Assembly: GCA_030041155.1 (NCBI GenBank)
Contig: JASHOJ010000047.1
Location: forward strand, 14,905 to 78,904
Length of the DNA stretch: 64,000 nucleotides
Reading direction: 5' to 3'
From: Candidatus Binataceae bacterium
GTDB lineage: Bacteria > Desulfobacterota > Binatia > Binatales > Binataceae
Part shown: one piece after another, positions 3,102 through 21,189 of the stretch
Numbering within the stretch: position 1 is the first letter of the stretch
Layout of the letters: each line of letters begins with the position of its first letter
Position numbers and translations under genes: made by a program
The notes under the pieces: model-generated
What the model was told of the DNA's origin: nothing
Seen by the model: the letters and a program-made list of their open reading frames with translations, nothing else
Database searches by the model: none

Positions 3102-4460
3102 ATGGCATCCAACGGCAAGCTTCCGTCAATCCGGACCTCGGTCCCGGGTCCCAAATCGGCTGAAATCTTCGCTCATGAGCAGCGCAACATCGCGCCCGGT
3201 CGGCAGCGAATTTCGCTGCTGGCGGGTGTCGCCTTCGATCATGGCGACGGCGCCACGCTGACTGATGCGGACGGCAACACCTACGTCGATTTTTACGCCG
3301 GCGTCGCGGTGGCGAGCCTCGGGCATGGAAATGCGCGTCTTGCGCAGGCGCTTGCTCGCCAGGCCTCGCGCCTGATCGTCGGCACTTTCGCCACCAAGGA
3401 GCGCGCCGAAGCCTTCGAGCTGCTAAGCCAGGCCGCGCCGGGCAAGCTCAAGCGGTCGCATTTTTATAGTGGCGGCGCGGAGGCTGTAGAGGCGGCGCTG
3501 AGACTCGCACGCTCGGTCACCAAAAAGCACGAGGTGGTCGGTTTCTGGGGTGGTTTTCACGGCAAAACCGGTGGCGTGCTCGGCCTGATCGGCGACGAAT
3601 CAAAGCAGGGTTACGGTCCGCTGCCGGGCGGTCGCTATCAGGTGCCGTATGCCGATTGTTACCGCTGCCCGTTTAAGCTCGAGCATCCCGGATGCGGGCT
3701 TGCCTGCGTCGATTTCGCGCGCGAGCAGATAAAAAATTCGTCGGCCGGCGACGTCGCCGCAATCCTGGTCGAACCGATGCAGGGAACCGCGGGCAATGTT
3801 ATTCCGCCTGATGACTGGCTTCCCGCTATCAAGTCGCTCGCGAAGGAATTCGGTGCGCTTTTGGTCGCTGACGAGATGATCACCGGCTTCGGCCGCACCG
3901 GAAAGATGTGGGGAGTGGAGCATAGCGGCACCGAGCCGGACGTGATCACGGTCGGCAAGGGGATGGGGTCGGGGTTTCCCGTCTCGGGTGTGCTTCTGAG
4001 CGATGAACTCGGCAGGGCGGAGCCATTCGGCAAGCCCAGCGCGTCGTCTTCGAGCTACGGCGGAAATCCGCTCGCGGCAGTCGCGGTGGCAGAGACCCTC
4101 AAGACGATTCGCGACGAAAAGCTGGTCGAGAACTCGCGAAAGGTGGGCGCCAAGATGCTCTCGCGGCTCAAGCAGCTTCAAGAAAAATACGAGTTTATCG
4201 GCGACGTGCGTGGCCGCGGCCTGCTGATCGGAATCGAGCTGGTGCGCGATCTGAAAACCCGCGAACTTCTGAACCGAAAGATAACCGAACTGATTTTCGT
4301 CGAGGCGCTGAGGCGCGGCCTTATCACGATGGGCTATTTTCCGAGAATTCGAATCAATCCGCCGCTCGTGATTACCGAGTCGCAGGCCGAGGCGGGAGTC
4401 GCGATCCTGGATGAAGTCTTCGCCCACGTACGCGATCACGTGGACTGGCGCGCCGCGTAG
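3102..4460 (+). CDS. class-III (omega) aminotransferase, PLP-dependent; possible HpnO-like enzyme
   Basis: LVADEMITGFGRTGKMWG and the PLP-lysine region TVGKGMGSGFP, as in the AcOrn/GABA/ornithine aminotransferase family. Confidence 0.8.
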   Translation: MASNGKLPSIRTSVPGPKSAEIFAHEQRNIAPGRQRISLLAGVAFDHGDGATLTDADGNTYVDFYAGVAVASLGHGNARLAQALARQASRLIVGTFATKERAEAFELLSQAAPGKLKRSHFYSGGAEAVEAALRLARSVTKKHEVVGFWGGFHGKTGGVLGLIGDESKQGYGPLPGGRYQVPYADCYRCPFKLEHPGCGLACVDFAREQIKNSSAGDVAAILVEPMQGTAGNVIPPDDWLPAIKSLAKEFGALLVADEMITGFGRTGKMWGVEHSGTEPDVITVGKGMGSGFPVSGVLLSDELGRAEPFGKPSASSSSYGGNPLAAVAVAETLKTIRDEKLVENSRKVGAKMLSRLKQLQEKYEFIGDVRGRGLLIGIELVRDLKTRELLNRKITELIFVEALRRGLITMGYFPRIRINPPLVITESQAEAGVAILDEVFAHVRDHVDWRAA

Positions 4461-4949: not shown

Positions 4950-5524
4950 AAGCGCGTCGCGCCCGAACTCAACGTGCGTGCGCGCGGAAGGCGGCCAGGG
5001 TTTCGAGTGCGGGGCAGGGACCCGATTCGAATGTAAGCAGACGTCGATGGCTCTCCTCGGCATCCAACTGTTTTCCATCGTCTGCGAGCGCTTCAATCTT
5101 GTTCCGATCCACCCGAAAGCCCCATTTGCATCGTATGCAGAAGTAAATCCGGGTCCCTCGGCTCACTTGCGCGTCGCCGTTCAGGACTGGCCCAATCACG
5201 TATTCATGACGCAGGGCGCGCCCGGTTGGCGGCAATTGTTGGTACGAACGAAAGCTCACGCATATAGCAAGTGGCAATTACTGGACCGGATCGGAAAAGC
5301 GCGGCGGTTAAGCAATTTCACACAAATTGCCAGCGCGGCCGCGGGATGCATTGTTGAACAACGCGATGCGTCATTGCATTCCGCATGGCGCGCGGCCTTC
5401 ATGAATGCAGCGTCTGAGACGACATTGGCTGCAGAGGAACGCCGATGGGTGCGGGTGGACAATTGGCCGGCGCGAGCGAGATACTCAGCCCGATATTTTC
5501 GGAATCGCCCGGGGTGCATCGATC

Positions 5525-6376
5525 ATGAAAATCGGTCTGCTTACGCCATTCAGCGGTCGAAACGGAAATCCAGCAGAGTTCGCACGCATCGCCGAGTCGC
5601 TCGGCTACGAATCCATCTGGGTGCCGGAGCATCCCGCGGTTCCGGCTAATCCCGCGTCGAAATTTCCCGCCGGGGGCGATATTCCGCCGATCTATTTTTC
5701 GATGGGCGATCAGATGATCGCGCTCGCGATGGCTGCTGGAGCCACGACCAAGCTCAAGCTTGCAACCGGCATCTGCCTGGTGCCGGAGCATAACGCGATC
5801 GCGATAGCCAAGCAGATAGCGTCGCTCGATGCGTTTTCGGGCGGGCGATTTATCTTCGGAATCGGCGCGGGATGGCTGCGCGAGGAATCCGAACTTTTCG
5901 GCGTCGACTTTCCGCGCAGGTGGACTCAGACCGCGGAGATGGTTGCCGCGATGCGCGAGTTATGGAGCCGCGAGGAAGCATCGTTCGAAGGCAAGTACAT
6001 CCGTTTCTCGAAAATCAAGTGTGCGCCCAAGCCGCTGCGCAAGGATGGTCCGCCGGTCGTGATCGGAAGCCTGGATAAGAACGCGCTGAAACGAGTGGCG
6101 AAGTGGGCCGACGGATGGTGCCCGATCCGAATCTCGGCTGACTTTCTGGCGGGCAAGCTCGCGGAGCTGAAGCGTGAATGCGCCGAACTGGGGCGCGACT
6201 TCTCCCGGCTCGATATTACCGTGATGGGATACATTCGCGGTGACCGATCCGCCGTGCAGGATGAATTGGCCAAGTTCGCGCAGGCGGGCGCCACGCGCTT
6301 TGTCATCGGCCTCGGCGAATTCACCCCCGAGACGATGGGACACACGCTGGAGCGTTTCGCCGCCACGTTCGTTTAG
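5525..6376 (+). CDS. LLM-class flavin/F420-dependent oxidoreductase
   Basis: Luciferase-like monooxygenase fold starting MKIGLLTPF...ESIWVPEHP. Start chosen at the internal ATG typical of the family. Confidence 0.65.
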   Translation: MKIGLLTPFSGRNGNPAEFARIAESLGYESIWVPEHPAVPANPASKFPAGGDIPPIYFSMGDQMIALAMAAGATTKLKLATGICLVPEHNAIAIAKQIASLDAFSGGRFIFGIGAGWLREESELFGVDFPRRWTQTAEMVAAMRELWSREEASFEGKYIRFSKIKCAPKPLRKDGPPVVIGSLDKNALKRVAKWADGWCPIRISADFLAGKLAELKRECAELGRDFSRLDITVMGYIRGDRSAVQDELAKFAQAGATRFVIGLGEFTPETMGHTLERFAATFV

Positions 6377-6900: not shown

Positions 6901-7935
6901 GTGAAACTGCGCGGCGCAATCTCCGGGTTTGGCGAAGTGGCCGCCCGGGCCCATTTGCCCGGATGGCTTGCACGCGAGGCGGTTGATATCCGCGTGGTGC
7001 ACGATCCTATTTCCGAACGGCGCCACGAGGCGATTCGCCATATCAAAGGCGTGCGGGTTTATGACGACCTTGAGCTGATGCTCGATGGCGAAGCGCCGGA
7101 TTTCGTGGATATCGCGAGTCCGCCGGCCTTCCATGCTGCCGCGGTGCGAACGGCTCTCAAAGCGGGAGCGCACGTGCTGATCGAAAAGCCGATGTGCCTC
7201 TCGCTGGACGAGTTTGATGACTTGTGCTCGATCGCGCGGCAGACTGGCCGCGTCCTGTGCTGCGTTCACAACTGGAAGTACGCGCCCGCCTATGCGAAAG
7301 CCGCCAAACTTATCGCGGAAGGCCGATTGGGAGCGGTGCGATTTATCTCTCTCGACCGCCTGCGAACCGCGCCTGCCGGAGCCGGCGGCTCGGGGGGGCA
7401 GTGGCGTGCTTCCGTCGCCTCGGGCGGCGGCATCCTGATCGATCATGGATGGCACGTCTTTTACCTTATGCAGTGGCTAATGGGTGGCGAACCAGCGCTC
7501 GCGATTTCCGCGAAACTCGGCGATGCCGGCGAAAGCGGAGCCGAACAGACCGCCGATCTGCGCGTCTCGTTTCCAGGAGGACGGCTCAGCGGTAACCGGA
7601 TTGCGCGTGCTTACCTGTCGTGGCGATCGCCCGTCCGGCGCACCTCGGCGCTTATCTACGGCGAAACCGGGATGCTGGAAATCGAAGGCGATAATGTCCG
7701 GCTTATTGATAGCGACGGACGCATAGAGACATTTTCGGCAGAAGACGCCCCCGATGACTCTTATCATGCGGGATGGTTTGCAGGCGTAGCCTCAGCTTTT
7801 GAGCGCGCCATCTCGGAGGGTCCGGACTCACCATCTGCCCGGGTGAATTTGGCCGAGGCGCGCAACGCGCTGGCACTAACTATCGCGTCGCGCGAATCGT
7901 CAGCATCGGGTTCCGAGATTAGTCTGGCTCGATGA
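6901..7935 (+). CDS. Gfo/Idh/MocA-family NAD(P)-dependent oxidoreductase (inositol/sugar dehydrogenase family)
   Basis: N-terminal Rossmann GFGEVA, the DFVDIASPP...HVLIEKPM motif. GTG start. Confidence 0.7.
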   Translation: MKLRGAISGFGEVAARAHLPGWLAREAVDIRVVHDPISERRHEAIRHIKGVRVYDDLELMLDGEAPDFVDIASPPAFHAAAVRTALKAGAHVLIEKPMCLSLDEFDDLCSIARQTGRVLCCVHNWKYAPAYAKAAKLIAEGRLGAVRFISLDRLRTAPAGAGGSGGQWRASVASGGGILIDHGWHVFYLMQWLMGGEPALAISAKLGDAGESGAEQTADLRVSFPGGRLSGNRIARAYLSWRSPVRRTSALIYGETGMLEIEGDNVRLIDSDGRIETFSAEDAPDDSYHAGWFAGVASAFERAISEGPDSPSARVNLAEARNALALTIASRESSASGSEISLAR

Positions 7936-8063: not shown

Positions 8064-8149
8064 AATTATTGACCGAAGGGTTAGCGGCGACGGCTCCTAC
8101 CCCACGGTTAAGTTGCACTGATGCAATCTTCATCTTTCAGGACCAGGTC

Positions 8150-8809
8150 ATGAGTGCATTATCGGCAAGAGCTGGGTCGGTTGAGGTGCGCGGGGGCTCT
8201 CAGGACTCGCGCGACGAAATCCTGAAAGCGGCGATGCATCTATTCGCCAGCCGCGGCTTCCATGAGACCTCGATGTCGGAGGTTGCGCGGGAGGCGCGGG
8301 TCAGCAAAGCGCTGATCTTCTGGCACTTTAAGACCAAAGAAGAGCTATTCGTGGCGGTGTTGAATCGCCTGCTCGAACCCTACTTTATCGATTTTTCCGA
8401 AGAGGCCGGCGTGCTGGACGAGCGCGCGCAGCTACGGAAGCTGGTTGAATTTTATCTATTGTTCGTGCGCGACAACGCGAGTTCGGTGCGATTCTTTATC
8501 GCCCAAATGCTGCACGATCAGCACTTTGCGGAGGGACTCAACGAGCAGGTTCTGAAACTCTACTCGGGCTACCGGAACATGCTTATCGAGCTGATCTCGC
8601 GCGCGCAGGAGAAAAATCTCTGCTCGCGGCAGTTTACGCCGGCGGCTGCGGCGGGCTTCCTGCTATCGGCGCTCAATGGAATTCTGATTGAACATCTTTT
8701 CGTCCAGAACCATCCACTCGATCCGGAGAGCGCGACCGCCATGGTCAGTGGATGGCTTTTCGGCGAAGACCTGAAACCCGCGGATCGCGAGGGAAAAGCT
8801 TTCGCCTGA
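8150..8809 (+). CDS. TetR/AcrR-family transcriptional regulator
   Basis: N-terminal HTH ILKAAMHLFASRGFHETSMSEVAREARVSKALIFWHFKTKEELF. Located 30 bp upstream of hpnH on the same strand. Confidence 0.8.
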   Translation: MSALSARAGSVEVRGGSQDSRDEILKAAMHLFASRGFHETSMSEVAREARVSKALIFWHFKTKEELFVAVLNRLLEPYFIDFSEEAGVLDERAQLRKLVEFYLLFVRDNASSVRFFIAQMLHDQHFAEGLNEQVLKLYSGYRNMLIELISRAQEKNLCSRQFTPAAAAGFLLSALNGILIEHLFVQNHPLDPESATAMVSGWLFGEDLKPADREGKAFA

Positions 8810-8839: not shown

Positions 8840-9844
8840 ATGCGGATGCCGCTTAAGCAAATGATCGACCTCGGCCGGTATGTGCGAGCCAGAAAAAAGG
8901 CCGGCGAGAAGTACTTTCCGCTGGTGCTGATGCTCGAGCCGCTGCACGCGTGCAATCTAGCCTGTATCGGATGCGGCCGGATTGTCGAATACAAAGACAC
9001 CATCCGCGACATGATGCCGCTCGAAGAGGCGCTCGCCTCGGCTGAGGAATGCGGAGCGCCGCTAGTCTCGATCTGCGGCGGAGAGCCGCTGATGTACAAG
9101 CATATCGTGCCGCTCACCACCCGGCTCATGGAAGAGCAGAAGCGGCACGTGATGATCTGCACCAACGCAATCCTGCTCGAACGATTCGTCAAGCAAGTGC
9201 CGCCTTCGCCCCGTCTGAGCTTCAATCTTCACCTCGACGGGATGCGAGACACCAATGATCGGGTGACCGATCGCAAAGGGCATTTCGATATCGTGATCAA
9301 GATGATCCGGATGCTCAAAGAGAAGGGTTACCGGGTCCAGACCAATACCACCGTGTTCCGGGAAACGACCGCCGAAGAATTGGAGGAGATGGTCAAGTAT
9401 CTCGGCAGTCTCGGAGTCGATGGGATGCTGCTCAGCCCCGGCTATCATTACCAGGTGCTGACCAACGATGAGCTGTACCTGACCGGCGATCAGAGCGTGG
9501 CGAAATTCCGCCGGGTCCGTGATCTCTCGCACGACTACAACGTGATCAACACGCCCATCTATCTGGACTACCTGGTCGGCGAACGCGATCTCCTGTGCAG
9601 CCCGTGGACCACGGTCACGCGCAATCCTCAGGGATGGAAGGGGCCCTGCTATCTAATTACCAACGGCCACTATAAGACGTTCGCGGATATGCACGAGAAG
9701 ACCGATTGGGAGTTCTATCGCACCAAGCAGGATGTCCGATGCCGCGACTGTAAGATGCATTCCGGTTTCGAGGGGACGGTCGCGATGGATTTCGGCAGGA
9801 ACCTGAAGGATTCGTGGCGGATGGTTCGCCATTACATGGCCTGA
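8840..9844 (+). CDS. hpnH: hopanoid biosynthesis radical-SAM protein HpnH (adenosylhopane synthase)
   Basis: LVLMLEPLHACNLACIGCGRI CxxxCxxC motif and overall HpnH architecture. Confidence 0.85.
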   Translation: MRMPLKQMIDLGRYVRARKKAGEKYFPLVLMLEPLHACNLACIGCGRIVEYKDTIRDMMPLEEALASAEECGAPLVSICGGEPLMYKHIVPLTTRLMEEQKRHVMICTNAILLERFVKQVPPSPRLSFNLHLDGMRDTNDRVTDRKGHFDIVIKMIRMLKEKGYRVQTNTTVFRETTAEELEEMVKYLGSLGVDGMLLSPGYHYQVLTNDELYLTGDQSVAKFRRVRDLSHDYNVINTPIYLDYLVGERDLLCSPWTTVTRNPQGWKGPCYLITNGHYKTFADMHEKTDWEFYRTKQDVRCRDCKMHSGFEGTVAMDFGRNLKDSWRMVRHYMA

Positions 9845-9945: not shown

Positions 9946-10836
9946 GTGTTTGATCTTGATCGGTACCTGAAAGACCGTGCTGCGACAGTTGAACGCGCCC
10001 TTGAGCGCGCCGTGCCGGAGGTCTCCGGTCCCGATGCGCGCCTGTCCGACGCGATGCGCTACAGCTTGCTCAGCGGCGGCAAGCGCCTTCGGCCAATCCT
10101 GGCGCTCGCCGCTTGCGAGTCGGTCGGCGGCGCAATCGAGTCCGCGATGGGGCTCGCCTGCGCGGTCGAGATGATTCACACCTACTCGCTCATCCATGAC
10201 GATCTGCCGTGTATGGACAACGACGATTTTCGCCACGGCCGCCCAACCAATCACAAGATATACGGCGACGCGATGGCCACGCTGGCCGGCGATGCGCTGC
10301 TGACCGACGCGTTCAAGGTGCTGGCCCGATCGGTTTCGGAAGCCGTGCCGCTTGAGCTTATGGTCGCGACTATCGCGGAGCTTTCCGAGGCCGCTGGCTC
10401 GGCTGGGATGGTTGGCGGGCAGGTGATCGATATTCAGAGCGAGAATCAGAAGCTATCGCTCGACGAGCTGAAGCATCTGCACAGCAAAAAGACCGGCGCG
10501 CTTTTCCGAGCCTCGATATTGGGAGGCGCACGGCTTGGCGGCGCGAGCGCCGCGGAGATGGTCTCGCTGGAAGCCTTCGCGCGCGCCGTAGGGCTGGCGT
10601 TTCAGGTGGTCGACGACATCCTTGATGTGGAATCGACCACCGAAAAAATGGGCAAGCGGACGCAGAAGGACGATGCTCTGGGCAAGGCGACTTTCCCCGC
10701 ACTGCTCGGACTCGAAGAATCGCACGCGTTCGCCCGCTCTCTGATGCACACGGCGCACAGCGCGATTGCGGGCTTCGGCGATCGCGCCGAACCTTTGCGC
10801 CAGATCGCAGCGTTCATGGTGGAGCGCAAATCATGA
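9946..10836 (+). CDS. ispA: polyprenyl (farnesyl/geranylgeranyl) diphosphate synthase
   Basis: First and second Asp-rich motifs LIHDDLPCMDNDDFRHGRPT and FQVVDDILD. GTG start. Confidence 0.85.
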   Translation: MFDLDRYLKDRAATVERALERAVPEVSGPDARLSDAMRYSLLSGGKRLRPILALAACESVGGAIESAMGLACAVEMIHTYSLIHDDLPCMDNDDFRHGRPTNHKIYGDAMATLAGDALLTDAFKVLARSVSEAVPLELMVATIAELSEAAGSAGMVGGQVIDIQSENQKLSLDELKHLHSKKTGALFRASILGGARLGGASAAEMVSLEAFARAVGLAFQVVDDILDVESTTEKMGKRTQKDDALGKATFPALLGLEESHAFARSLMHTAHSAIAGFGDRAEPLRQIAAFMVERKS

Positions 10837-11891
10837 GCGCCGCCCCGGCTTATCAAACTCGGTCCGCGCGCCGCGCGATGCTGATCGAGCCGGGCCGTCT
10901 GGAGCTTTGCGCGTACGCTCCGCCCCGCCCGGGTCCGGGCGAGCTGCTACTTCAGGTGCGTTGCGCTTTGAGCTGCGGAACTGACCTGAAGGCATGGCGC
11001 CGCGGTCATCCCTTGTGGAAGCTGCCGATGCCCTTCGGGCACGAGTTCTCGGGCGTGGTGATCGAAGCCGGATCCGGAGTAAGCGCCTTCAAGGCCGGCG
11101 ATGAAGTGATGGCGGCGCCTACCGCGCCATGCGGCGAATGCTTTTACTGCGCGCGCGGGGACGAAAATCTGTGCCCCGATGCGGTCGGGCGGATGCTGCA
11201 CGGAGCATACGCGGACCTGATCGTGATTCCGGCGCATATCGTCGCGCGCAATACGTTTATCAAGCCGCGCGATCTTCCGTTCGAAGAAGCCGCGCTCCTG
11301 GAACCACTTTCGTGCGTCGTGCATGCGCAAGCGATGGCCGCGCCTGCCGCGCACGAGACAGCCATGGTCATCGGCGCCGGTGCATTTGGATTGCTTCACA
11401 TGATTGTTTTGCGCGCCGCCGGTGTTCGCCAGATAGTGGTCGCCGGACGCGGCGACGCGCGGCTTAGGTGGGCGGCCGACCTGGGCGCCGATCGCGTAAT
11501 CGATGTGCGCGCACAGGATGCAGCTTCCGAGATCGCGCGCTTAAACGGCGGTTTCGGCCCCGACCTGGTCATCGAATGCACCGGGCAAGTGGATGGATGG
11601 AGCGATGCGTTCGCGCGGGTACGCCGCGGCGGGCGGGTGGTATTTTTTGGCGGATGCGCGCCGGGAACCGCGCTTAGCGTCGACACTCGCCGGATGCATT
11701 ACGACAACCTGACACTGCTCGCTCCGTTTCACTATCGTCCGCGTGATGTTCAGGCGGCATACGCGATGCTTTCGCGGCGAGATCTGGGAGCCGGGCGGAT
11801 TATCAACGCGCGCCGCAGCCTGGCCGATCTCGCGAGGGTGTTTGAGATGCTGGAGCAGGGGACCGTGCTCAAATGCGCGGTAATTCCGTAG
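10833..11891 (+). CDS. Zn-dependent medium-chain alcohol dehydrogenase (threonine/sorbitol-DH-like) embedded in the hopanoid cluster
   Basis: CGTDLKAW...GHEFSG...Zn-site Cys cluster CGECFYCARGDENLC and a GxGxxG Rossmann motif. ATGA overlap with ispA. Confidence 0.75.
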   Translation: MSAAPAYQTRSARRAMLIEPGRLELCAYAPPRPGPGELLLQVRCALSCGTDLKAWRRGHPLWKLPMPFGHEFSGVVIEAGSGVSAFKAGDEVMAAPTAPCGECFYCARGDENLCPDAVGRMLHGAYADLIVIPAHIVARNTFIKPRDLPFEEAALLEPLSCVVHAQAMAAPAAHETAMVIGAGAFGLLHMIVLRAAGVRQIVVAGRGDARLRWAADLGADRVIDVRAQDAASEIARLNGGFGPDLVIECTGQVDGWSDAFARVRRGGRVVFFGGCAPGTALSVDTRRMHYDNLTLLAPFHYRPRDVQAAYAMLSRRDLGAGRIINARRSLADLARVFEMLEQGTVLKCAVIP

Positions 11892-11909: not shown

Positions 11910-13889
11910 GTGCAAGCGATTGGTATGAGCCAGATTGTAGAGACTGATTTTCCGGCGCAAGCCGCGCCGATAGCATCACGCGACGAGTTCGCGGCCAAAA
12001 TCGATTTCACCATCGACCGCGCGCAGCGATCGCTTATCGCCGCGCAGTATCCTGAGGGCTACTGGCACGCTCCGCTCGAGGCGAATGCGGAGATGAACGC
12101 CGAGTTCATCATCTTCAATCACTTCATGGAGAATGTCGATCCGGTTCTCGAGTCGAAACTCAAGAAATTCCTGCTCGATAGTCAGAACGCCGACGGCAGT
12201 TGGAGCCTCTATGCCGGTGGCGAGGGCTATCTGTCGAGCACGATTGAGGCCTACTTCGCGCTCAAGCTTGCCGGGATGCGCGCCGGCGACGAGCCGCTGC
12301 TCCAATCTCGCCGATGGATTCTCGCGCACGGCGGAATCGAGAAGTGCGGAACCCTTGCGCGCTTCTATCTTGCCGCGATGGGGCAGGTGCCGTGGGAAGC
12401 TACCGCGGCGATTCCCCCCGAGGTCGTGCTGCTGCCCAACTGGTTCCCGTTCAACGTGTATGAACTGGCATCGTGGGCGCGCGGCACCGTCTTCGGCCTG
12501 ATGGTTCTGCAGGCGATGCGCCCGATGGTGCCGGTGAGCTTTCAGGAAGGCGTGCTGGAGCTTTACATTCAGCCTCCGCACTTCACGCGCTTCAAACAGC
12601 CGGCCGCGGCGCGTCTTTTCTCTCTGCGCTCGATGTTTAACGTGCTCGATCGCGGCCTCCGCTTCTACAATCGGCACGCGCCCTCCGGTCTTCGCTCAAA
12701 AGCGCTTCGCGCGGCAGAGAGCTGGATCGTCGAGCATCAGGAGGCCAATGGTTCATGGGGCGGTATCGAGCCATGCTACCTGCTGAGCGCGATGGCGCTG
12801 AAGGCGCTTGGCTACAAGCTCGATCATCCGGTGCTCAAAAAGGCGCTTGAGGCGTCCAAGGAGCTTATCTGGGAGTTCGGCGATCGCGCGCTCTATATGC
12901 CGTGCGTCTCGCCCAACTGGGACAGCGCGCTTGCGGCCAAGGCGCTGCTCGATTCCGGACTCGATCGGAGTCATCCCGCTCTTACGAAGTGCACCGAATG
13001 GTTCATCGATCATCAGATCTTCGAGCGCGGCGACTGGTCGATAAAACGGCCGAAGCTCGAGCCGGGCGGCTGGGCGTTTGAGTTCTACAACAATTGCTAT
13101 CCCGATGTGGACGATTCCGCCGTGATCCTCGCCGCGATGGCGGAGTGCGAAGGCGCGGATAAGGAGAAGCGCGATCGTTCGATTCGCGCCGGCGCGAACT
13201 GGGTGATGGGGATGCAATCGAAGGACGGCGGTTTCGCCGCCTTCGACGTTGATAATGATTCGCACTGGCTCAATTCGCTGCCGCTCGCGGATGTCGAAGC
13301 GGTGACCGATCCCTCGTGCGCGGATCTGACCGGACGCGTGCTCGAGATGATGGGCGCGGTCGGCTACAAGCCCGACCATCCTGTCGCTCGCCGCGCGATC
13401 GATTGGCTCCGAAAAAATCAGACGCCCGAGGGCGCGTGGTGGGGAAGGTGGGGCGTCGCCTACATTTATGGAACTTTCTCCGCGCTGTCAGGATTGCGCG
13501 CGATAGGCTTTGACATGAGCGAGCCCTGGATTCGCCGCGCGGTCGAGTGGCTCAAGTCAAAGCAGAACGAAGACGGTGGTTGGGGCGAGAGCCCGATGGC
13601 CGACAGGGATTCCGCCTGGCGCGGACGCGGCACCAGTTGCGCCTCGCAGACCGCGTGGGCGCTCATCGGTCTCGTCGCGGGCGAAGATGGTGTTTCTGAT
13701 AGCGCGATGCGCGCGGCGTCTTGGCTCTGGGAGCGGCAGAACGACAATGGCGCGTGGGACGAATCGGAGTTTACCGGCAACGGCTTCCCAAACCATTTTT
13801 ATCTCCGATACTACATGTATTCCCATTATTTCCCGTTGATGGCGCTGGGCCGGCTCAGAAAACGCATCTCTGAAACGCGGGCGTCTTGA
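11910..13889 (+). CDS. shc: squalene-hopene cyclase
   Basis: Multiple QxxxGxW repeats and the catalytic DVDDSAV (DxDD) motif. An alternative ATG start lies at 11925. Confidence 0.9.
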   Translation: MQAIGMSQIVETDFPAQAAPIASRDEFAAKIDFTIDRAQRSLIAAQYPEGYWHAPLEANAEMNAEFIIFNHFMENVDPVLESKLKKFLLDSQNADGSWSLYAGGEGYLSSTIEAYFALKLAGMRAGDEPLLQSRRWILAHGGIEKCGTLARFYLAAMGQVPWEATAAIPPEVVLLPNWFPFNVYELASWARGTVFGLMVLQAMRPMVPVSFQEGVLELYIQPPHFTRFKQPAAARLFSLRSMFNVLDRGLRFYNRHAPSGLRSKALRAAESWIVEHQEANGSWGGIEPCYLLSAMALKALGYKLDHPVLKKALEASKELIWEFGDRALYMPCVSPNWDSALAAKALLDSGLDRSHPALTKCTEWFIDHQIFERGDWSIKRPKLEPGGWAFEFYNNCYPDVDDSAVILAAMAECEGADKEKRDRSIRAGANWVMGMQSKDGGFAAFDVDNDSHWLNSLPLADVEAVTDPSCADLTGRVLEMMGAVGYKPDHPVARRAIDWLRKNQTPEGAWWGRWGVAYIYGTFSALSGLRAIGFDMSEPWIRRAVEWLKSKQNEDGGWGESPMADRDSAWRGRGTSCASQTAWALIGLVAGEDGVSDSAMRAASWLWERQNDNGAWDESEFTGNGFPNHFYLRYYMYSHYFPLMALGRLRKRISETRAS

Positions 13890-13916: not shown

Positions 13917-15095
13917 ATGGCGTCAAAGGCAATCTCGATTCTCGGAACCACCGGCTCGGTTGGAGTGACCACCCTCGACGTGGTCGCGCGCTATCGAGAT
14001 CGCTTTCGCGTGGTTGCGATGGCTGCCGGAAGAAATCTAGATCTCCTGGTTCGCCAGATTGCTGATTTCAAGCCCGAGCTGGTTTCGGTTGCCAATGCTG
14101 CCCTCGCCGTGGAGCTGCGCGCTCGGCTTACAGCCGGCAGCCGAGTTGAGATCGCGCACGGGCTTGAGGGTGCGTGCGCCGTCGCGACTCATCCCGAGGC
14201 GAAGCTCGTGGTCTCAGCGCTGGTCGGCGCGCTTGGCCTGCGTCCCACCCTGGCCGCTATCAAGGCGGGCAAAGACATCGCGTTTGCCAATAAGGAGGTT
14301 CTGGTTGTCGCCGGAGAGATGGTCACGCGCGCGGTTCGCGAGTCCGGCGTGCGCCTGCTTCCGGTCGATAGCGAACACAACGCGATTTTCCAGTGCCTTG
14401 AGGGGCGCGGCCGCGACTCGCTCAAGCGAATCATCCTTACCGCGTCGGGCGGTCCTTTCCGCGAGCTTTCCGCCGATCGCTTCGCTGCGATTACGGTCGA
14501 GCAGGCGCTCAAGCATCCCACCTGGCGGATGGGCAGCAAGATCACGATCGACTCGGCGACCCTGATGAACAAAGGGCTGGAAGTGATCGAGGCGCGGTGG
14601 TTGTTCGATGTATCTCGCGCGCGGGTAAACGTTGTCATCCATCCGCAGAGCGTCATCCATTCGATGGTCGAGATGGTTGACGGCTCGGTTATCGCCGAGA
14701 TGGCGATTCCCGATATGGCGATTCCGGTCGCCTACGCGCTCGCGTATCCGGAGCGTCTGCCGCTGCCTCATCTTAAACCGCTATCACTTGCCGAGTGCTC
14801 GCGGCTGACGTTCGAGGAGCCTGACCTCGACCGTTTTCCGTGCCTGCGGCTCGCATTCGACGCGCTCGACGCCGGCGCGACGATGCCCGCGTGCCTGAAC
14901 GCCGCGAATGAGGAACTGGTCGCCGGATTTCTGGCCGGCAAAACGCGCTTTATCGATATCCCGCGGCATATCGAGACAATCATGCGGCGGCATCCGAATT
15001 CTCCGGCGCGAACCCTGGAAGATCTGCTCGAAGTTGACGAATGGGCGCGTGCAGAGGCGCGCCAACTAATCGGCGGCACGCCAAAAGCCGCCTGA
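13917..15095 (+). CDS. dxr: 1-deoxy-D-xylulose-5-phosphate reductoisomerase
   Basis: N-terminal ILGTTGSVG NADPH motif, then LLPVDSEHNAIFQ and ITVDSATLMNKG motifs. Confidence 0.9.
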   Translation: MASKAISILGTTGSVGVTTLDVVARYRDRFRVVAMAAGRNLDLLVRQIADFKPELVSVANAALAVELRARLTAGSRVEIAHGLEGACAVATHPEAKLVVSALVGALGLRPTLAAIKAGKDIAFANKEVLVVAGEMVTRAVRESGVRLLPVDSEHNAIFQCLEGRGRDSLKRIILTASGGPFRELSADRFAAITVEQALKHPTWRMGSKITIDSATLMNKGLEVIEARWLFDVSRARVNVVIHPQSVIHSMVEMVDGSVIAEMAIPDMAIPVAYALAYPERLPLPHLKPLSLAECSRLTFEEPDLDRFPCLRLAFDALDAGATMPACLNAANEELVAGFLAGKTRFIDIPRHIETIMRRHPNSPARTLEDLLEVDEWARAEARQLIGGTPKAA

Positions 15096-15112
15096 TACGA
15101 GGTCGTACTTCG

Positions 15113-16045
15113 ATGGATGCGATACGGACGCGGGAGGCGGGACCGGAAGGCTTAGGTGCCGGATCGGATCTCGCCGCTGATGCGTTCGGCGCGCAATCCC
15201 TCAGGCTCGACGAGGCCTACGCCTGGTGCGGAAAACTCGCGCGCTCGCATTACGAGAACTTCACCATCGCGTCGTGGCTGATGCCGGCGGCGATGCGCAA
15301 GCATATGCACGCGATCTACGCGTACGCGCGAATTGCCGACGACTTCGCCGACGAGGAGCACGATCTCAAAAAGCTCGACGATTGGGAGCGCCAGCTCGAC
15401 CTCGCGTACGCCGGCGCGCCGCGGCATCCGGTATTCGTCGCTCTTGCGGATACCGCCAGAAAGTATGATATCCCGCGCGGCCCATTCGCCGATCTGCTGA
15501 CCGCGTTTCGCTCCGACGTCGATTTCAAAGGCTTCGAGACGATGGACGAGTTGCTGGGCGGCTACTGCGCTTACTCGGCCAATCCGGTCGGCCGTCTGGT
15601 GCTCTATCTGTTCGGCTACCGCGACGCGGAGCGCCAGCGCGCGTCTGATCTGGTATGCAGCGGCCTTCAGCTTGCGAATTTCTGGCAGGACGTCGCGATC
15701 GATCTCGAAAAGGGCCGCATCTATTTTCCGCGCGCTGACCTCGCGCGCTTTGGCGTAACCCCGTCCGATCTCCAGAGTGGAGCTGTGACCGCGCAATTCA
15801 CCGCTCTGATGGACCACGAGATCGGCGTCGCGCGCGCGATGCTGCGCGAAGGAGGACTCACTCTCGCCGGATCGGTGGACCGGCGCCTGCGCCGCGACAT
15901 CCTGATGTTCGCCGGCGGAGGACTGGCGATTTTGCGCTTGATTGAACAGGCAGGCTGCGATGTGTTCCGCAACCGTCCGAAGCTTTCCAAACTCGACTAT
16001 TTCAAACTTGGCTGGAATGCCTTGAGAGGACGACTTGAAACCTGA
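15113..16045 (+). CDS. hpnC: squalene-synthase-like HpnC (hydroxysqualene synthase)
   Basis: Trans-isoprenyl diphosphate synthase fold: YAYARIADDFADE and LANFWQDVAIDLEKGRIYFP. Confidence 0.8.
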   Translation: MDAIRTREAGPEGLGAGSDLAADAFGAQSLRLDEAYAWCGKLARSHYENFTIASWLMPAAMRKHMHAIYAYARIADDFADEEHDLKKLDDWERQLDLAYAGAPRHPVFVALADTARKYDIPRGPFADLLTAFRSDVDFKGFETMDELLGGYCAYSANPVGRLVLYLFGYRDAERQRASDLVCSGLQLANFWQDVAIDLEKGRIYFPRADLARFGVTPSDLQSGAVTAQFTALMDHEIGVARAMLREGGLTLAGSVDRRLRRDILMFAGGGLAILRLIEQAGCDVFRNRPKLSKLDYFKLGWNALRGRLET

Positions 16046-16970
16046 ACATGTGCCGGCTAATGCGGATAACTCGGCGCCCGATGCGGCGTTGGTGGCTGAC
16101 TACGAGCACTGCGCTGAAATAACGCGGCGCTCGTCGTCGAACTTCTATTACGCGTTCATGCTGCTGCCCGTCGAGCGGCGCAGAGCGCTCTACGCCGTAT
16201 ATGCCTTCTGCCGCTTCGTCGATGATATAGCGGACGACGGCGCAGGCCCGGATGGCGCGGAGCGCTCGCCGGCGGATTTGCTTCGCCAGTGGCGCGACGA
16301 GCTCGATCGCGTCTACCGCGGCGCGCCGACCCGCGCTATCTCGCGCGCGCTTGCCGATACCGCGGCGCGATTCGCGATCCCGCGCGGCTACTTCGACGAG
16401 GTGATCTCCGGGGTCGAGATGGACCTCTCGCAGAAGCGCTACGCCACCTTTGACGACTTGCGGCTCTATTGTTTTCGCGTCGCTGCCGCGGTCGGGCTCA
16501 TCTGTATCGAAATTTTCGGCTACAGCAATCCGAACGCGCGGGTGTATGCGGAATATCTGGGAATCGCGTGCCAGCTCACCAACATCCTGCGCGACGTCAA
16601 GGAAGACGCCGGGCGCGGCCGTATCTATCTGCCGCTTGAGGATCTGGCCCGCTTCGGCGTGAGCGAAGATGAAATTCTGCGCGGAATTTATAGCGACGCC
16701 TTCGTGCGCCTGATGGAATTCGAAGCCGCGCGCGCCCGCGATTTCTACGATCAGGCCGATCGCCTGCTTCCCGACGAAGACCGGTCCAGCTTGCGCACGG
16801 CCGAGGCGATGCGGCAGATTTACGGCTCGCTGCTGAACCTGATCGTCCAGTCGAATTACCGCGTGCTGGACAAGCGGCTCAGCCTCTCCGCGACGCGCAA
16901 GCTCTATCTGGTCGGGCGCGTATGGGCCAGTTCCAGGCTCGGCGCGCTGCGCGGCCAGGCGCGCGCCTAA
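16035..16970 (+). CDS. hpnD: presqualene diphosphate synthase HpnD
   Basis: YAFCRFVDDIADD and GIACQLTNILRDVKEDAGRGRIYLP motifs. Non-ATG start (TTG at 16035 or GTG at 16050) overlapping the hpnC stop. Confidence 0.8.
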   Translation: MKPEHVPANADNSAPDAALVADYEHCAEITRRSSSNFYYAFMLLPVERRRALYAVYAFCRFVDDIADDGAGPDGAERSPADLLRQWRDELDRVYRGAPTRAISRALADTAARFAIPRGYFDEVISGVEMDLSQKRYATFDDLRLYCFRVAAAVGLICIEIFGYSNPNARVYAEYLGIACQLTNILRDVKEDAGRGRIYLPLEDLARFGVSEDEILRGIYSDAFVRLMEFEAARARDFYDQADRLLPDEDRSSLRTAEAMRQIYGSLLNLIVQSNYRVLDKRLSLSATRKLYLVGRVWASSRLGALRGQARA

Positions 16971-17000: not shown

Positions 17001-18380
17001 ATGTCAATGATCGACCCGAAAGATGTGGTCGTGATCGGCGGCGGATTCGCGGGACTCAGCGCGGCGGTGGCGCTTGCCGAAAAAGGTTTTCGGGTCGCGG
17101 TGCTGGAAGGAAAGCCGTCGCTTGGCGGGCGCGCTTACTCGTTCCAGGATCCCGATACCGGCGACTTCGTCGATAACGGCCAGCATGTGCTGATGGGATG
17201 CTATACGGCCACGCTGGATTTCCTGCGCAGAATCGGATCGGCGGATAATCTGGTCTTTCACCAGGATCTCGAAATCGAGATGCTGGCGGGGCCTGGCAAC
17301 AGCGCTACCTTGCGCACCGCGCCGCTGCCCGGACCTCTTCATATGAGCGCCGCCCTGATGCGCTATCGGCATCTCAGCGTCGCCGAGCGGATTCAGGTCG
17401 TGCGCGGAGGGTTAAGGTTGCTCGCGATGCGCCGCCGCGATCGTCGCGCGCTGGAAAAGATGACTGTCACGGCTCTGATGGAATCGCTCGGGCAGAGCGC
17501 GAATGCCTGCCGCGCGTTCTGGTTCCCGCTTTCGATTGCGACGCTCAATGACGAGCCGCGGCTATCCTCGGCGGCGCTGCTCGCCGAGGTGCTCAAACGC
17601 GCGTTTTTCTCTCGCCGCCGCGATTCGGCTTTCGTCTATTCGCGGGTTGGACTGAGCGACCTTTATTGCACCGGCGCTCGCGCGATTATCGAGAACGCGG
17701 GCGGCGTCGTATCCACTCGCGCGATTGTCGATTCCCTCGATCGCGGCGAAGACGGCTCGGTTGCTTGCGCGCGGCTGCGGGACGGCCGCAGGCTCGGCGC
17801 CGCCAATTTCATCTCCGCCGTGCCGCCGCAGAGCCTCACGCGGATGCTGCCCGCGGAGGATGGCGCGGATCCATATTTTTCGCGGCTAGCGGAGCTTGGC
17901 GATTCGCCGATCATCTGCGTCCACGTATGGTTCGATCGGGAGATTACCCGCTCCGCGTTCGTCGGCTTTATCGGCGCCACCACTCAGTGGATGTTCAACA
18001 AGCGCAGGATTTTCGAGCGGCACGGCGAGCGGCATCCCGGCTATTTGAGTTTCGTGATCAGCGGAGCGCGCAGACTGGTCGACAGCTCCAATGATGCGCT
18101 GCTCGACCTGGTGCTGGCCGATCTCTGCGCCATGATTCCCGCCGCGCGCGATGCGAAAGTCGTGAAAGCGCTGGTGCTCAAGGAGAAGCGGGCCACGATG
18201 GCGCCCGACCTGCGCTCTCATCAGCTCCGCCCGGGAACCGTGTCGCCGCTCAAAAATCTGTTTCTTGCCGGCGACTGGGTGCAGACCGGTCTTCCCGCGA
18301 CTATCGAAAGCGCGGTCATCTCCGGAATGGCGGCGGCGTCCGCGGTGGCCGCACGATCAACATCCCTTCAGGCGCAATGA
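17001..18380 (+). CDS. hpnE: hydroxysqualene dehydroxylase HpnE (FAD amine-oxidase fold)
   Basis: VVVIGGGFAGLSAAVALAEKGFRVAVLEGKPSLGGRAYSF dinucleotide-binding motif. Position is directly after hpnD. Confidence 0.85.
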   Translation: MSMIDPKDVVVIGGGFAGLSAAVALAEKGFRVAVLEGKPSLGGRAYSFQDPDTGDFVDNGQHVLMGCYTATLDFLRRIGSADNLVFHQDLEIEMLAGPGNSATLRTAPLPGPLHMSAALMRYRHLSVAERIQVVRGGLRLLAMRRRDRRALEKMTVTALMESLGQSANACRAFWFPLSIATLNDEPRLSSAALLAEVLKRAFFSRRRDSAFVYSRVGLSDLYCTGARAIIENAGGVVSTRAIVDSLDRGEDGSVACARLRDGRRLGAANFISAVPPQSLTRMLPAEDGADPYFSRLAELGDSPIICVHVWFDREITRSAFVGFIGATTQWMFNKRRIFERHGERHPGYLSFVISGARRLVDSSNDALLDLVLADLCAMIPAARDAKVVKALVLKEKRATMAPDLRSHQLRPGTVSPLKNLFLAGDWVQTGLPATIESAVISGMAAASAVAARSTSLQAQ

Positions 18381-19381
18381 TGGATCCGAAGCTCGCGCTG
18401 GTAACCGGCGGCAACGGCTTTGTCGGATGCTATGTCGTGCGCGCCCTCCTTCGACAGGGCTGCCGGGTGCGGGTGCTGGTTCGCGAGCACGCCGACATCA
18501 CGGCGCTTGCCGGCCTTCAGGTTGATCTCGCGCGCGGTGATTTGCGAGACGCCCATGCGGTCAGGCGCGCTGCTGCGGGATGCAGCGAGGTTTATCACGT
18601 CGCTGCCGATTACCGCCTGTGGGTGCCGGATCCGGCGGCCATGTACGCGAGCAACGTCGATGGAACCCGCAATGTAATAGAAGCCGCGCGGGCGGCGGGC
18701 GTCCAGCGTATCATTTACACCAGCACGGTCGGCGTTCTCGGGATTCCGCATGGCGCGCCCGGCACCGAAGAGACGCCCTCGTCGCTTCAGGACATGCCCG
18801 GACCATATAAGCGATCGAAATTCATGGCCGAAGAGGTTGCTCGCGAGGCCGCGCGCGCCGGCGCTCCAGTCGTGATCGTGAATCCATCAACCCCGGTGGG
18901 CGCGCTCGATCTGAAACCGACTCCCACCGGACGAATCATCCGCGACTTCATAAGTGGCAGGATGCCGGCATACGTGGACACCGGGCTTAATCTGGTTGAC
19001 GTGGAAGACTGCGCGCGCGGCCATCTGCTTGCCGCCGAGCGCGGGAAAATCGGCGAGCGATATATTCTGGGCGGGGAAAACCTGACCTTAAAGGAGATGT
19101 TCGAGCGTCTTGAGCGCCTGTCGGGAGTGCCGGCTCCGAAGCACAGAATTCCATACGCGGTCGCGCTCGGATTTGCGCTCGGCGCGGAGACGCTAGCGCG
19201 CACGGTGACCCATCGCGCTCCGCGCGCCAGCGTCACCGAGGTCCGGATGTCGCGCAAGCACATGTTCTTTGATTCGTCGAAGGCGCGCAGCGAACTTGGC
19301 TACGCTCCGGGCCCGGTGGATGGCGCGCTTGCGCGCGCGATCGAGTTCTTTCGCAACTCCGCGCCCTCGCGAGCGGCTTAG
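18377..19381 (+). CDS. hpnA: hopanoid-associated NAD-dependent epimerase/dehydratase HpnA
   Basis: LVTGGNGFVGCYVVRALL Rossmann motif and a YKRSK active site. ATGA overlap with hpnE. Confidence 0.8.
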   Translation: MMDPKLALVTGGNGFVGCYVVRALLRQGCRVRVLVREHADITALAGLQVDLARGDLRDAHAVRRAAAGCSEVYHVAADYRLWVPDPAAMYASNVDGTRNVIEAARAAGVQRIIYTSTVGVLGIPHGAPGTEETPSSLQDMPGPYKRSKFMAEEVAREAARAGAPVVIVNPSTPVGALDLKPTPTGRIIRDFISGRMPAYVDTGLNLVDVEDCARGHLLAAERGKIGERYILGGENLTLKEMFERLERLSGVPAPKHRIPYAVALGFALGAETLARTVTHRAPRASVTEVRMSRKHMFFDSSKARSELGYAPGPVDGALARAIEFFRNSAPSRAA

Positions 19382-19393
19382 CGGAAACCTTCG

Positions 19394-20290
19394 ATGCATC
19401 TGCTGATAGGCACGATCCTGCTCAGGCCGTATGTGTTCGTATTCCTGGTGAGCTTCCTGTTCATCGCGATCGTGAACTTCGGCGTTCGCACCACGATCCT
19501 GTTTTCGATTCTCACCTACGGCGTCGCGCTCGGATGCGAATGGTCATCGGTGCATAACGGGTTCCCATTCGGCCTTTATCATTATGTATACGCAACCCGC
19601 GAGCGCGAACTGTGGGCCGCCGGCGTGCCGGTGTTCGATTCTCTGTCGTTCACTTTTCTTGCGTTTGCCAGTTACACCGTCGCGCTGCTCTTGAGCTCGC
19701 CGCTTTATCGCCGCGGATGGGATCTGCGGATTCTGGACACCTGGAAGATTCGCCGTTCGCCGCGCGTGTGGCTGATGGCGGCGCTGTTCATGGTGATGAT
19801 CGACATGGTGGTCGATCCGCTGAGCGTGCGCGGCGAGAAATGGTTTCTCGGCAGGATATTCTGGTACGACCCGGCCGGACCGCACTTTGGAGTTCCGATC
19901 AGCAATTACCTGGGATGGTACTTCGTCGGCGCGATCACGATCGCGATCTTTGTCGCGCTCGATCAGCTCCTGAATCGATCGGCCGCGCGTCCCGCGGGAG
20001 TGGCGGAGCGATTGCCGTCACGCGCGATTCTGGGGCCGCTGCTCTACGCCGGAATAGCGATCTTCGGAATCACGATGCTGTTTTGGATCGGCGCGGCTGA
20101 AATCGCATGGGCCAGCGTCTTCATCTATCTGCCGTTCGCCGCCCTGGTCGCGCATATTCTGACCCGGAGCGGCTCGTATGGTGACGCCGCGGACCGGGAG
20201 CGTCATCTGGCCGACTTTCACTACGAGCGGGATCTTCCGGTGTTTACCTGCGAATCGGGTGAAACCGCCCCGCTGCGGCGCCGGCTATGA
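19394..20290 (+). CDS. polytopic membrane protein, DUF422 / 'carotenoid biosynthesis protein'-like, hopanoid-cluster associated
   Basis: Seven or more predicted TM helices and a conserved GFPFGLYHY segment. No catalytic motif recognised. Confidence 0.5.
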   Translation: MHLLIGTILLRPYVFVFLVSFLFIAIVNFGVRTTILFSILTYGVALGCEWSSVHNGFPFGLYHYVYATRERELWAAGVPVFDSLSFTFLAFASYTVALLLSSPLYRRGWDLRILDTWKIRRSPRVWLMAALFMVMIDMVVDPLSVRGEKWFLGRIFWYDPAGPHFGVPISNYLGWYFVGAITIAIFVALDQLLNRSAARPAGVAERLPSRAILGPLLYAGIAIFGITMLFWIGAAEIAWASVFIYLPFAALVAHILTRSGSYGDAADRERHLADFHYERDLPVFTCESGETAPLRRRL

Positions 20291-21063: not shown

Positions 21064-21189
21064 GTCAACTGTCCCGGCGATGCCTCAAAGTCTTGAGCAG
21101 AACCCCGGATACAAGCAAAATTGCGCGGAGATGAAAGTACGTCAAGCTGCTACCGTACTCTTGGATGCTGCTGGACACGGTTACCGTCT

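Follow-up and report, generated by a model that had tools for sequence, protein, structure and literature searches.

A 64,000-nucleotide stretch of a Candidatus Binataceae genome (contig JASHOJ010000047.1; the whole stretch is called the window below) contains a hopanoid gene cluster in which a gene for a zinc-dependent alcohol dehydrogenase (ADH) of the medium-chain dehydrogenase/reductase (MDR) superfamily lies between the farnesyl diphosphate (FPP) synthase gene ispA and the squalene-hopene cyclase gene shc, and the question it raises is what such an enzyme does there. We found the ADH to be a constant member of the Binataceae hopanoid operon, and its product is best explained as a soluble Zn-dependent medium-chain oxidoreductase of a group, here called A-type, that also includes ug2, a Zn-ADH of acidobacterial hopanoid clusters. 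Because genes of this group have been embedded separately in the clusters of two phyla, a real functional link to the hopanoid or isoprenoid pathway is probable. The whole statement, of an operon member that carries out NADPH-dependent reduction of a hopanoid-pathway carbonyl, is offered more tentatively, at somewhat below an even chance, and the functional claim is drawn entirely from gene context.

The first-pass annotation had read this open reading frame as a zinc MDR that overlaps ispA and stands directly before shc, and the coordinates (Table 1), the ATGA overlap and the profile matches all agree with that description. Both Pfam domains score above their gathering thresholds (ADH_N, PF08240, 8e-27; ADH_zinc_N, PF00107, 8e-22), corresponding to the GroES-like N-terminal domain and C-terminal Rossmann domain of the MDR superfamily. 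Alignment to threonine dehydrogenase (TDH) and sorbitol dehydrogenase (SDH) places the catalytic zinc ligands at C48, H70 and E71, with E157, and the structural zinc ligands at C100, C103, C106 and C114, and both zinc sites are predicted on this basis. The dinucleotide-binding motif is G181-x-G183-x-x-G186; the zinc ligands together with G181 and G183 are invariant in 39 of 39 aligned homologs, and G186 is retained in at least 90% of them. With these invariant ligands and a confident AlphaFold2 model (MDR fold, pLDDT 88.6, pTM 0.89) the enzyme looks functional. Its gene has a GC content of 64-65%, the same as ispA, and base composition gives no sign of recent transfer.

Automatic annotation would make this protein simply an L-threonine 3-dehydrogenase (Tdh) or a sorbitol (L-iditol 2-) dehydrogenase, which we consider very improbable. 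These two families do top its NCBIfam and PDB matches, and homologs carry the JGI label ‘L-iditol 2-dehydrogenase’; however, no NCBIfam equivalog reaches its cutoff, the best being Tdh (NF003808, 157.7 bits against 380), and no solved structure is more than 28% identical. Tdh was rejected on these model scores (TIGR00692 likewise gives 154.5 bits against 458) and on the cofactor residue, Glu199 of the Pyrococcus horikoshii enzyme (PhTDH) being replaced by Gly205-Arg206, while sorbitol dehydrogenase was rejected because Asp203 is replaced by Gly205 and Arg298 by His300, with solved SDH structures 28% identical. The IolM model gives 139 bits against a cutoff of 450. Hopanoid models are absent among the 24 NCBIfam hits; TIGR03366, labeled ‘HpnZ_proposed’, describes a phosphonate-catabolism ADH, and the window protein scores below its cutoff. 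The best PDB matches, none of them above 28% identity, are an MDR of unknown function from Sinorhizobium, Escherichia coli YdjJ, archaeal TDHs and SDHs, and a Foldseek search of the PDB returned generic MDR matches only, with no clue to the substrate. TM-scores to P. horikoshii TDH (2D8A), human SDH (1PL6), whitefly NADP-ketose reductase (1E3J) and Thermotoga IolM are 0.82-0.87. The window ADH has in common with this polyol/threonine subgroup a Cys-His-Glu catalytic zinc site with a second-sphere Glu and the GxGxxG motif, and its four-cysteine structural zinc site resembles that of TDH, but it has Lys53 where the subgroup has His, and an RRG insertion that is exclusive to the A-type clade. It is placed within the polyol/threonine-dehydrogenase-like MDRs, in none of the characterized families.

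To follow the gene beyond the window, one genome per GTDB species was scanned, which gave 80 loci (54 Binataceae and 26 others), and the hpn proteins of the window were compared to these by tblastn. As the first-pass annotation had anticipated in proposing that conservation of the gene between ispA and shc be checked, ispA lies immediately 5′ of the ADH gene in 54 of 54 Binataceae genomes, with ADH proteins 66-78% identical to that of the window, and shc lies immediately 3′ in all 51 loci that are long enough. The order TetR-hpnH-ispA-ADH-shc-dxr-hpnC-hpnD-hpnE is kept wherever the sequence reaches, the full conserved order ending in hpnC-hpnD-hpnE-hpnA, and the TetR-family gene is upstream of hpnH in every locus whose flank extends to it. 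Upstream of this block the flanks vary: no more than about half of the loci have an ortholog of the LLM-class oxidoreductase, and the GFO/IDH/MocA gene is present in nearly all loci reaching it, absent in one (L037) and displaced in another (L045). The hpn block, with the ADH in it, is thus under tighter constraint than its surroundings. The ispA-ADH-shc arrangement is more than chance.

At the junction itself, the ADH start overlaps the TGA stop of ispA by 4 nt in 51 of the 54 Binataceae loci (GTGA in 39, ATGA in 10 and TTGA in 2), although, given a TGA stop, chance alone would produce an NTGA start in some three-quarters of cases; in many loci the overlap codon is the sole available start before the conserved N-terminus. 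The motif GTGGAGCG (GTCGAGCG in L048) lies at an equal distance before the ADH start in all 51 overlap loci, GGAG being present in 50 of 51, and because the GGAG segment also codes for the conserved C-terminal Val-Glu-Arg of IspA it is under dual constraint. In the window, the ATGA overlap and GGAG layout allows translational coupling of the ADH to ispA. On the other side, 18 nt separate the ADH stop from the shc start, and a scan for promoters and terminators between the genes gave no signal beyond shuffled background. The overlap (51/54) and the operon position, both kept family-wide, argue strongly for the co-expression that the first-pass annotation had proposed from the single locus. The three loci without the overlap (L005, L020 and L041) are long-read metagenome-assembled genomes (MAGs) in which the ispA or ADH frames appear broken or fused, probably through homopolymer assembly indels and not as pseudogenes; in L041 the ispA frame continues to the ADH stop.

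Zinc ADHs beside hopanoid genes have been described before. In the hopanoid clusters of Acidobacteria of subdivisions 1-3, two unexplained Zn-ADH genes were reported, ug2 (∼350 amino acids), which precedes hpnC-hpnD-hpnE, and ug1 (∼370 amino acids), which follows hpnA-hpnG, both with function given as ‘not established’ (Sinninghe Damsté et al. 2017, PMC5462960); no later paper characterizing ug2 was found in the literature searched. The first-pass view that such dehydrogenases are not canonical hpn genes thus holds for the hpnA-R names and the NCBIfam models, but overlooks that Zn-ADHs by hopanoid genes had been published as ug1 and ug2.

We scanned a metagenome collection with the HpnC motif SANPVGRLVL, which is common to Binataceae and Streptomyces HpnC, and obtained 120 HpnC contigs, 82 of which were informative in having at least 700 nt upstream of hpnC or a detectable upstream MDR. 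In 45 of these 82 the gene immediately before hpnC, in the same orientation, encodes an MDR. Longer contigs have the order shc-hpnH-hpnA-hpnG-MDR(B)/ug1-MDR(A)/ug2-hpnC-hpnD-hpnE, and the contigs with a concatenated cluster of acidobacterial type are L090, L096, L119, L131, L170, L190, L193, L196, L204 and L205; the open reading frame in the gap of L170 is HpnG-like (TIGR03468, 141 bits). The hpnC-proximal MDRs (hopA) score 196-260 bits against the window enzyme and fall within about the top 110 of the 38,481 MDR representatives recovered when 1.84 billion cluster representatives were searched exhaustively with HMMER. The 90%-identity cluster of one hopA representative (P0155, rank 35) includes proteins from Terriglobus roseus and from further Terriglobus strains. 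The T. roseus ug2 (WP_083344508.1, 355 amino acids) is 40% identical to the window ADH over 339 amino acids (E = 2e-78), and its gene overlaps by 4 nt the first of two SQS_PSY genes (hpnC), with an HpnE-type oxidase following. In this genome (L210), the ug2-hpnC-hpnD-hpnE unit is separate from shc, hpnH and hpnG and has no ug1; it adjoins divergently transcribed MlaE/ABC lipid-transport genes.

The window gene resembles ug2 as a Zn-ADH of ∼350 amino acids in a hopanoid operon, with A-type motifs, an NADP(H)-type loop and a 4-nt overlap with a pathway gene. The two differ in position, ug2 being upstream of hpnC whereas the Binataceae ADH lies between ispA and shc, with shc and dxr before hpnC. 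The Binataceae ADH also lacks an adjacent ug1-type partner, belongs to a different phylum and is nearer to homologs with no hopanoid link.

Indeed, the nearest full-length relatives of the Binataceae proteins lie elsewhere. The named closest homologs of the window protein are almost all from Binataceae or Binatus, and in the HMMER search of cluster representatives the Binataceae proteins are isolated, matches at 64% identity or more being fragments only and the next full-length sequences at most 47% identical. Short contigs tagged as Acidiferrales or Acidoferrum (L028, which is DATNLS010000311.1, and P0033 and P0042) carry a Binataceae-type GFO-TetR-hpnH-ispA-ADH block at Binataceae-level identity (HpnH 84%); misbinning is the most likely cause, and not a copy present in Acidobacteria. 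The 26 non-Binataceae GTDB loci, at 39-50% identity and 278-350 bits, come from other Binatia, Dormibacterota, Eremiobacterota, Nitrospirota, Desulfuromonadales, Chloroflexota, Armatimonadota and a human-gut MAG, and hopanoid genes were found within ±6 kb in none of the 26. In 18 of them a second MDR gene, whose product is 27-36% identical to the window ADH, adjoins the first, downstream in 17 and upstream in L076. Of four cluster representatives checked from among the nearest, three also sit in a tandem MDR pair, the contig of the fourth (P0159) being too short; a gene for a membrane methyltransferase of the PEMT family follows at P0123 and a small cupin gene at P0144, and at both the MDR genes overlap by 4 nt. 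Among the further loci L081-L087, a 4-nt overlap of the paired genes is seen in L081-L083 and L086 (positions 7742-10292 in L081 and 881-3518 in L086). Besides the second MDR, only sporadic cupin, PEMT and housekeeping neighbors were seen at the 26 distant loci, with no clue to the substrate. The A member of the tandem pair is the closest relative of the window ADH, with the same motif set and Gly-Arg loop, but it stands beside a second MDR without hopanoid genes, whereas the Binataceae ADH is solitary and inside the hpn operon. The first-pass annotation had named scattering of orthologs outside hopanoid clusters as one of the observations that would speak against a hopanoid role; the outcome is divided, since the Binataceae orthologs never leave the cluster and the acidobacterial branch is inside hopanoid clusters, while the 39-50% identical homologs are outside.

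A neighbor-joining (NJ) tree with 100 bootstraps was used to compare the Binataceae proteins (BIN), their A-type homologs with no hopanoid link (gtdbA), the acidobacterial hopA proteins and the B-type partners. Bootstrap support is 100 each for BIN as monophyletic, for hopA as monophyletic and for the separation of an A-type clade (BIN, gtdbA and hopA) from the B-type sequences. Within the A-type clade, BIN groups with gtdbA weakly (49/100) and never with hopA (0/100), and mean identities are 45% for BIN-gtdbA and 38% for BIN-hopA; the window ADH and ug2 are thus on different branches of one MDR clade. The tandem-pair genes of other Binatia appeared as the exact sister of the Binataceae in the first NJ tree only (1% bootstrap), a placement that we do not claim. 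The two B-type groups, acidobacterial and from other phyla, are only ∼32% identical to each other, and for this reason ‘the pair’ may be more than a single conserved system.

The same groups are separated by residue signatures. The A-type clade is marked by CGTDLK-x-[WFY]-RRG-[HY], F272-G-G, F299-H300 and Gly/Arg(Lys) at 205/206, while B-type sequences are without the RRG segment and have Tyr-Ser at 299/300 and Asp at 205; the cysteines at 100, 103, 106 and 114 are kept across all 145 A- and B-type sequences. In HMMER alignments, Asp203 of human SDH and Glu199 of PhTDH align with Gly205, which is followed directly by Arg206 and further on by Arg210, and His300, invariant throughout the A-type groups, aligns with Arg298 of human SDH. 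In the human enzyme we take Asp203 to be the NAD+ residue and Arg298 the polyol-binding residue. In MDRs, a basic residue next to a position that has lost its acidic residue marks NADP(H) use, and since Gly205-Arg206 replaces the acidic residue that contacts the NAD ribose, the window ADH is predicted to prefer NADP(H). Gly205 with Arg or Lys206 is kept in all A-type groups and Asp205 in the B-type partners, so that, judged by these residues, the A-type looks NADP(H)-dependent and the B-type NAD(H)-dependent, and the tandem layout of the two suggests an oxidation/reduction (epimerization) module. For the window ADH the NADP(H) signature would imply a reductive direction in vivo. The first-pass annotation had proposed that the enzyme could oxidize a polyol side chain (BHT or ribosylhopane) or an isoprenoid alcohol; here the signature points to NADPH-dependent reduction instead.

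As for the step concerned, the ADH would be co-produced within the hopanoid operon, translationally coupled to FPP synthase, and would use NADPH to reduce the carbonyl of a hopanoid-pathway metabolite. The step that we favor is at a sugar-derived carbonyl of the C35 side chain, either the conversion of open-chain ribosylhopane to bacteriohopanetetrol (BHT) or the reduction of a keto-intermediate. The nearest characterized families (Tdh, IolM, sorbitol dehydrogenase and ketose reductase) act on sugars, polyols and amino alcohols, and since the cluster carries hpnH, hpnK and an hpnG-like gene, synthesis of C35 side chains is to be expected. NADPH-dependent reduction of ribosylhopane in cell-free extracts was reportedly observed by Bodlenner et al. 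in 2015. It is this polyol-type resemblance, the NADP(H) signature, the hpnH/hpnG-like/hpnK genes, the placement of the ug pair after hpnG and the existence of a step that lacks an enzyme that lead us to favor the side chain, a 2026 review having listed no enzyme for ribosylhopane to BHT and given the step as ‘predicted to be nonenzymatic’ (PMC13459092). C35 side-chain carbonyl reduction is nonetheless, as a specific step, a proposal with a low chance of being right. The wider proposal, that the A-type MDR (the window gene and ug2), alone or with ug1, is the missing ribosylhopane-to-BHT enzyme or determines how the BHT polyol tail is configured or oxidized in both Binataceae and Acidobacteria, is slightly more doubtful still.

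Several observations weigh against side-chain reduction. Chloracidobacterium thermophilum has no ug2 and yet produces BHT (PMC5462960), so that the ADH cannot be a general ribosylhopane reductase. The genes to which it is most tightly coupled in the two phyla, ispA and hpnC, belong to the early pathway, unlike hpnG or hpnH, and an acyclic isoprenoid substrate would therefore fit at least as well. MDRs of the polyol-dehydrogenase type usually use secondary alcohols and ketones, not aldehydes. Most hopanoid producers are without such an ADH in their clusters, for example on a Streptomyces plasmid where shc comes immediately after a polyprenyl synthase gene; two plasmid regions inspected by way of Shc tblastn hits (an isolated Bradyrhizobium shc and the Streptomyces cluster) contained no Zn-ADH. 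The 26 related loci in other lineages are outside hopanoid clusters, and conservation across the Binataceae reflects a single evolutionary event.

The coupling to early genes is the starting point for an alternative in which the substrate of the ADH is an acyclic isoprenoid alcohol or aldehyde between FPP and squalene, and the enzyme is made together with those that form and use up FPP; candidates are farnesol/farnesal salvage and redox of hydroxysqualene or of a by-product of HpnC/HpnD. Both of the tightest overlaps are indeed with FPP-handling genes (ispA in Binataceae, hpnC in T. roseus), the T. roseus ug2-hpnCDE unit is away from shc, hpnH and hpnG, and BHT production without ug2 in C. thermophilum weakens a side-chain role. 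The 2017 description also ties ug2 to hpnCDE (PMC5462960). Set against this, the three-enzyme route through HpnD, HpnC and HpnE as described needs no Zn-ADH step, relatives lie beside cupin and PEMT genes with no hopanoid genes nearby, and the nearest characterized families use hydrophilic substrates; the MDRs known to act on terpenoid alcohols belong to the CAD/ADH-type subfamilies. We consider isoprenoid redox unlikely, at about the same low chance as side-chain reduction. The relatives in unrelated contexts, spread over many phyla and mostly in a tandem MDR pair, would fit a general polyol, sugar or small-alcohol dehydrogenase that has no part in hopanoid synthesis, was inserted once in the Binataceae ancestor and is retained through its overlap with ispA. 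The absence of the gene from most hopanoid producers agrees with such a passenger, and since the non-hpn GFO/MocA and LLM neighbors are also largely syntenic, part of the synteny is simply shared ancestry. Its retention in all 54 species at 66-78% identity with invariant zinc ligands, the constancy of the hpn block with the ADH between variable outer flanks, and the fact that a separate branch of the clade is built into hopanoid clusters in another phylum, where start and stop codons likewise overlap, nevertheless argue against a mere passenger, to which we give a similarly small chance.

The co-occurrence of two cofactor types in Acidobacteria allows a further explanation, in which the ADH is the reductive half of an epimerization or remodeling of secondary hydroxyls in the BHT tail, yielding lineage-specific stereoisomers or keto and pentol derivatives; oxidation would be performed by the NAD-type ug1 in Acidobacteria and by another enzyme in Binataceae. 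A paired NAD+ and NADPH enzyme is the classic layout for alcohol epimerization, as in inositol metabolism, and NAD-type (Asp205) and NADP-type (Gly-Arg/Lys) MDRs do stand side by side after hpnG in acidobacterial-type contigs. SDH-like enzymes oxidize the carbon beside a terminal CH2OH, which in BHT would be C-34. However, the Binataceae cluster has the A-type gene only, T. roseus has ug2 without ug1, and the divergence of the B-type groups raises the same doubt about a single paired system, which makes remodeling less likely again than the readings above. Overall, we rank side-chain reduction first, though weakly, with isoprenoid redox and a passenger gene near-equal to it, remodeling below these and a plain threonine or sorbitol dehydrogenase far behind.

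The other genes of the cluster and its flanks are listed in Table 1.

Table 1. Features of the hopanoid cluster and its surroundings (positions in the window)
Feature	Coordinates	Strand	Remarks
Class-III aminotransferase (broad family of HpnO)	3102..4460	+	
F420-dependent LLM-class oxidoreductase	5405..6376	+	
GFO/IDH/MocA oxidoreductase	6901..7935	+	Upstream of TetR
TetR-family regulator	8069..8809	+	Head of conserved block; PF00440
hpnH, adenosyl-hopene transferase (radical SAM)	8840..9844	+	TIGR03470, 374 bits (cutoff 225)
ispA, FPP synthase	9946..10836	+	PF00348, 2e-55; NF045485, 364 bits (cutoff 275)
Shine-Dalgarno-like GGAG	10821..10824	+	Inside ispA 3′ end, 8 nt before ADH start
ATGA start/stop overlap, ispA/ADH	10833..10836	+	ispA TGA at 10834-10836
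Zn-dependent MDR (ADH)	10833..11891	+	352 amino acids, ATG start; Pfam ADH_N and ADH_zinc_N
shc (hpnF), squalene-hopene cyclase	11910..13889	+	TIGR01507, 716 bits (cutoff 431)
dxr, 1-deoxy-D-xylulose 5-phosphate (DXP) reductoisomerase	13917..15095	+	NF009114, 519 bits
hpnC, hydroxysqualene synthase	15041..16045 (longest open reading frame)	+	TIGR03464, 307 bits
hpnD, presqualene diphosphate synthase	16035..16970	+	TIGR03465, 326 bits
hpnE, hydroxysqualene dehydroxylase	17001..18380	+	TIGR03467, 426 bits
hpnA, hopanoid-associated short-chain dehydrogenase/reductase (SDR)/epimerase	18377..19381	+	TIGR03466, 465 bits
CruF/PF04240-like membrane protein (carotenoid 1,2-hydratase family)	19394..20290	+	Directly after hpnA
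hpnG-like nucleosidase/phosphorylase	20221..21063	-	280 amino acids; TIGR03468, 86 bits, below cutoff (187)
hpnK, BHT-N-acetylglucosamine deacetylase	21121..22095	+	TIGR03473, 258 bits (cutoff 233)
Aldo/keto reductase	27630..28640	-	

Within this cluster, the ADH shares its operon with HpnG, HpnH and HpnA but has an MDR fold where these have PNP, radical SAM and SDR folds, respectively. HpnA, like the ADH, has an NAD(P)-dependent oxidoreductase fold and a role that is not established (PMC5462960, Table S1). Unlike these three, the ADH is outside the hpn nomenclature and the NCBIfam hopanoid models and is missing from most hopanoid producers. The longest open reading frame for hpnC runs 55 nt into the end of dxr, giving ∼50 extra residues at the N-terminus that other HpnC proteins do not conserve; translation probably begins further downstream, as alignment conservation begins at about residue 55. 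The minus-strand hpnG-like gene was located by tblastn with Streptomyces HpnG and is probably a divergent hpnG, convergent with the main operon; it is masked by a plus-strand open reading frame (20287-21096, 269 amino acids) without a family match, which we deemed spurious. A PF04240 protein like the one after hpnA also occurs in a related metagenome contig (L152, 6019-6852), and this CruF-like, hydratase-type protein could have diploptene or the side chain as its substrate. The ribosylhopane aldehyde could also be a substrate of the aminotransferase or the aldo/keto reductase near the cluster, and the GFO/MocA protein, a sugar/inositol-type oxidoreductase, could be a member of the hopanoid module.

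The association of a Zn-ADH with hopanoid genes is real, recurs in two phyla and was already published in 2017 for Acidobacteria. What is new is a second phylum with an independently placed, family-wide copy that overlaps ispA and belongs to the same A-type clade as ug2, together with the finding that the cofactor signatures of the A (NADP) and B (NAD) types differ. Hopanoids, major lipids of bacterial membranes, give rise to the geohopane biomarkers, and we know of no enzymes that account for their side-chain isomers. Two abundant hopanoid-bearing soil lineages, the Binataceae and the Acidobacteria, have an NADP-type Zn-MDR in their hopanoid operons, which makes it a concrete and cheaply testable candidate for the ribosylhopane-to-BHT step, ug2 (with ug1) being deletable in culturable Terriglobus or Acidobacterium strains. 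If the substrate is an isoprenoid alcohol instead, the enzyme would represent an unrecognized accessory step in squalene and hopanoid biosynthesis, and if the gene is a passenger, it would counsel caution in inferring function from operon position in a single family.

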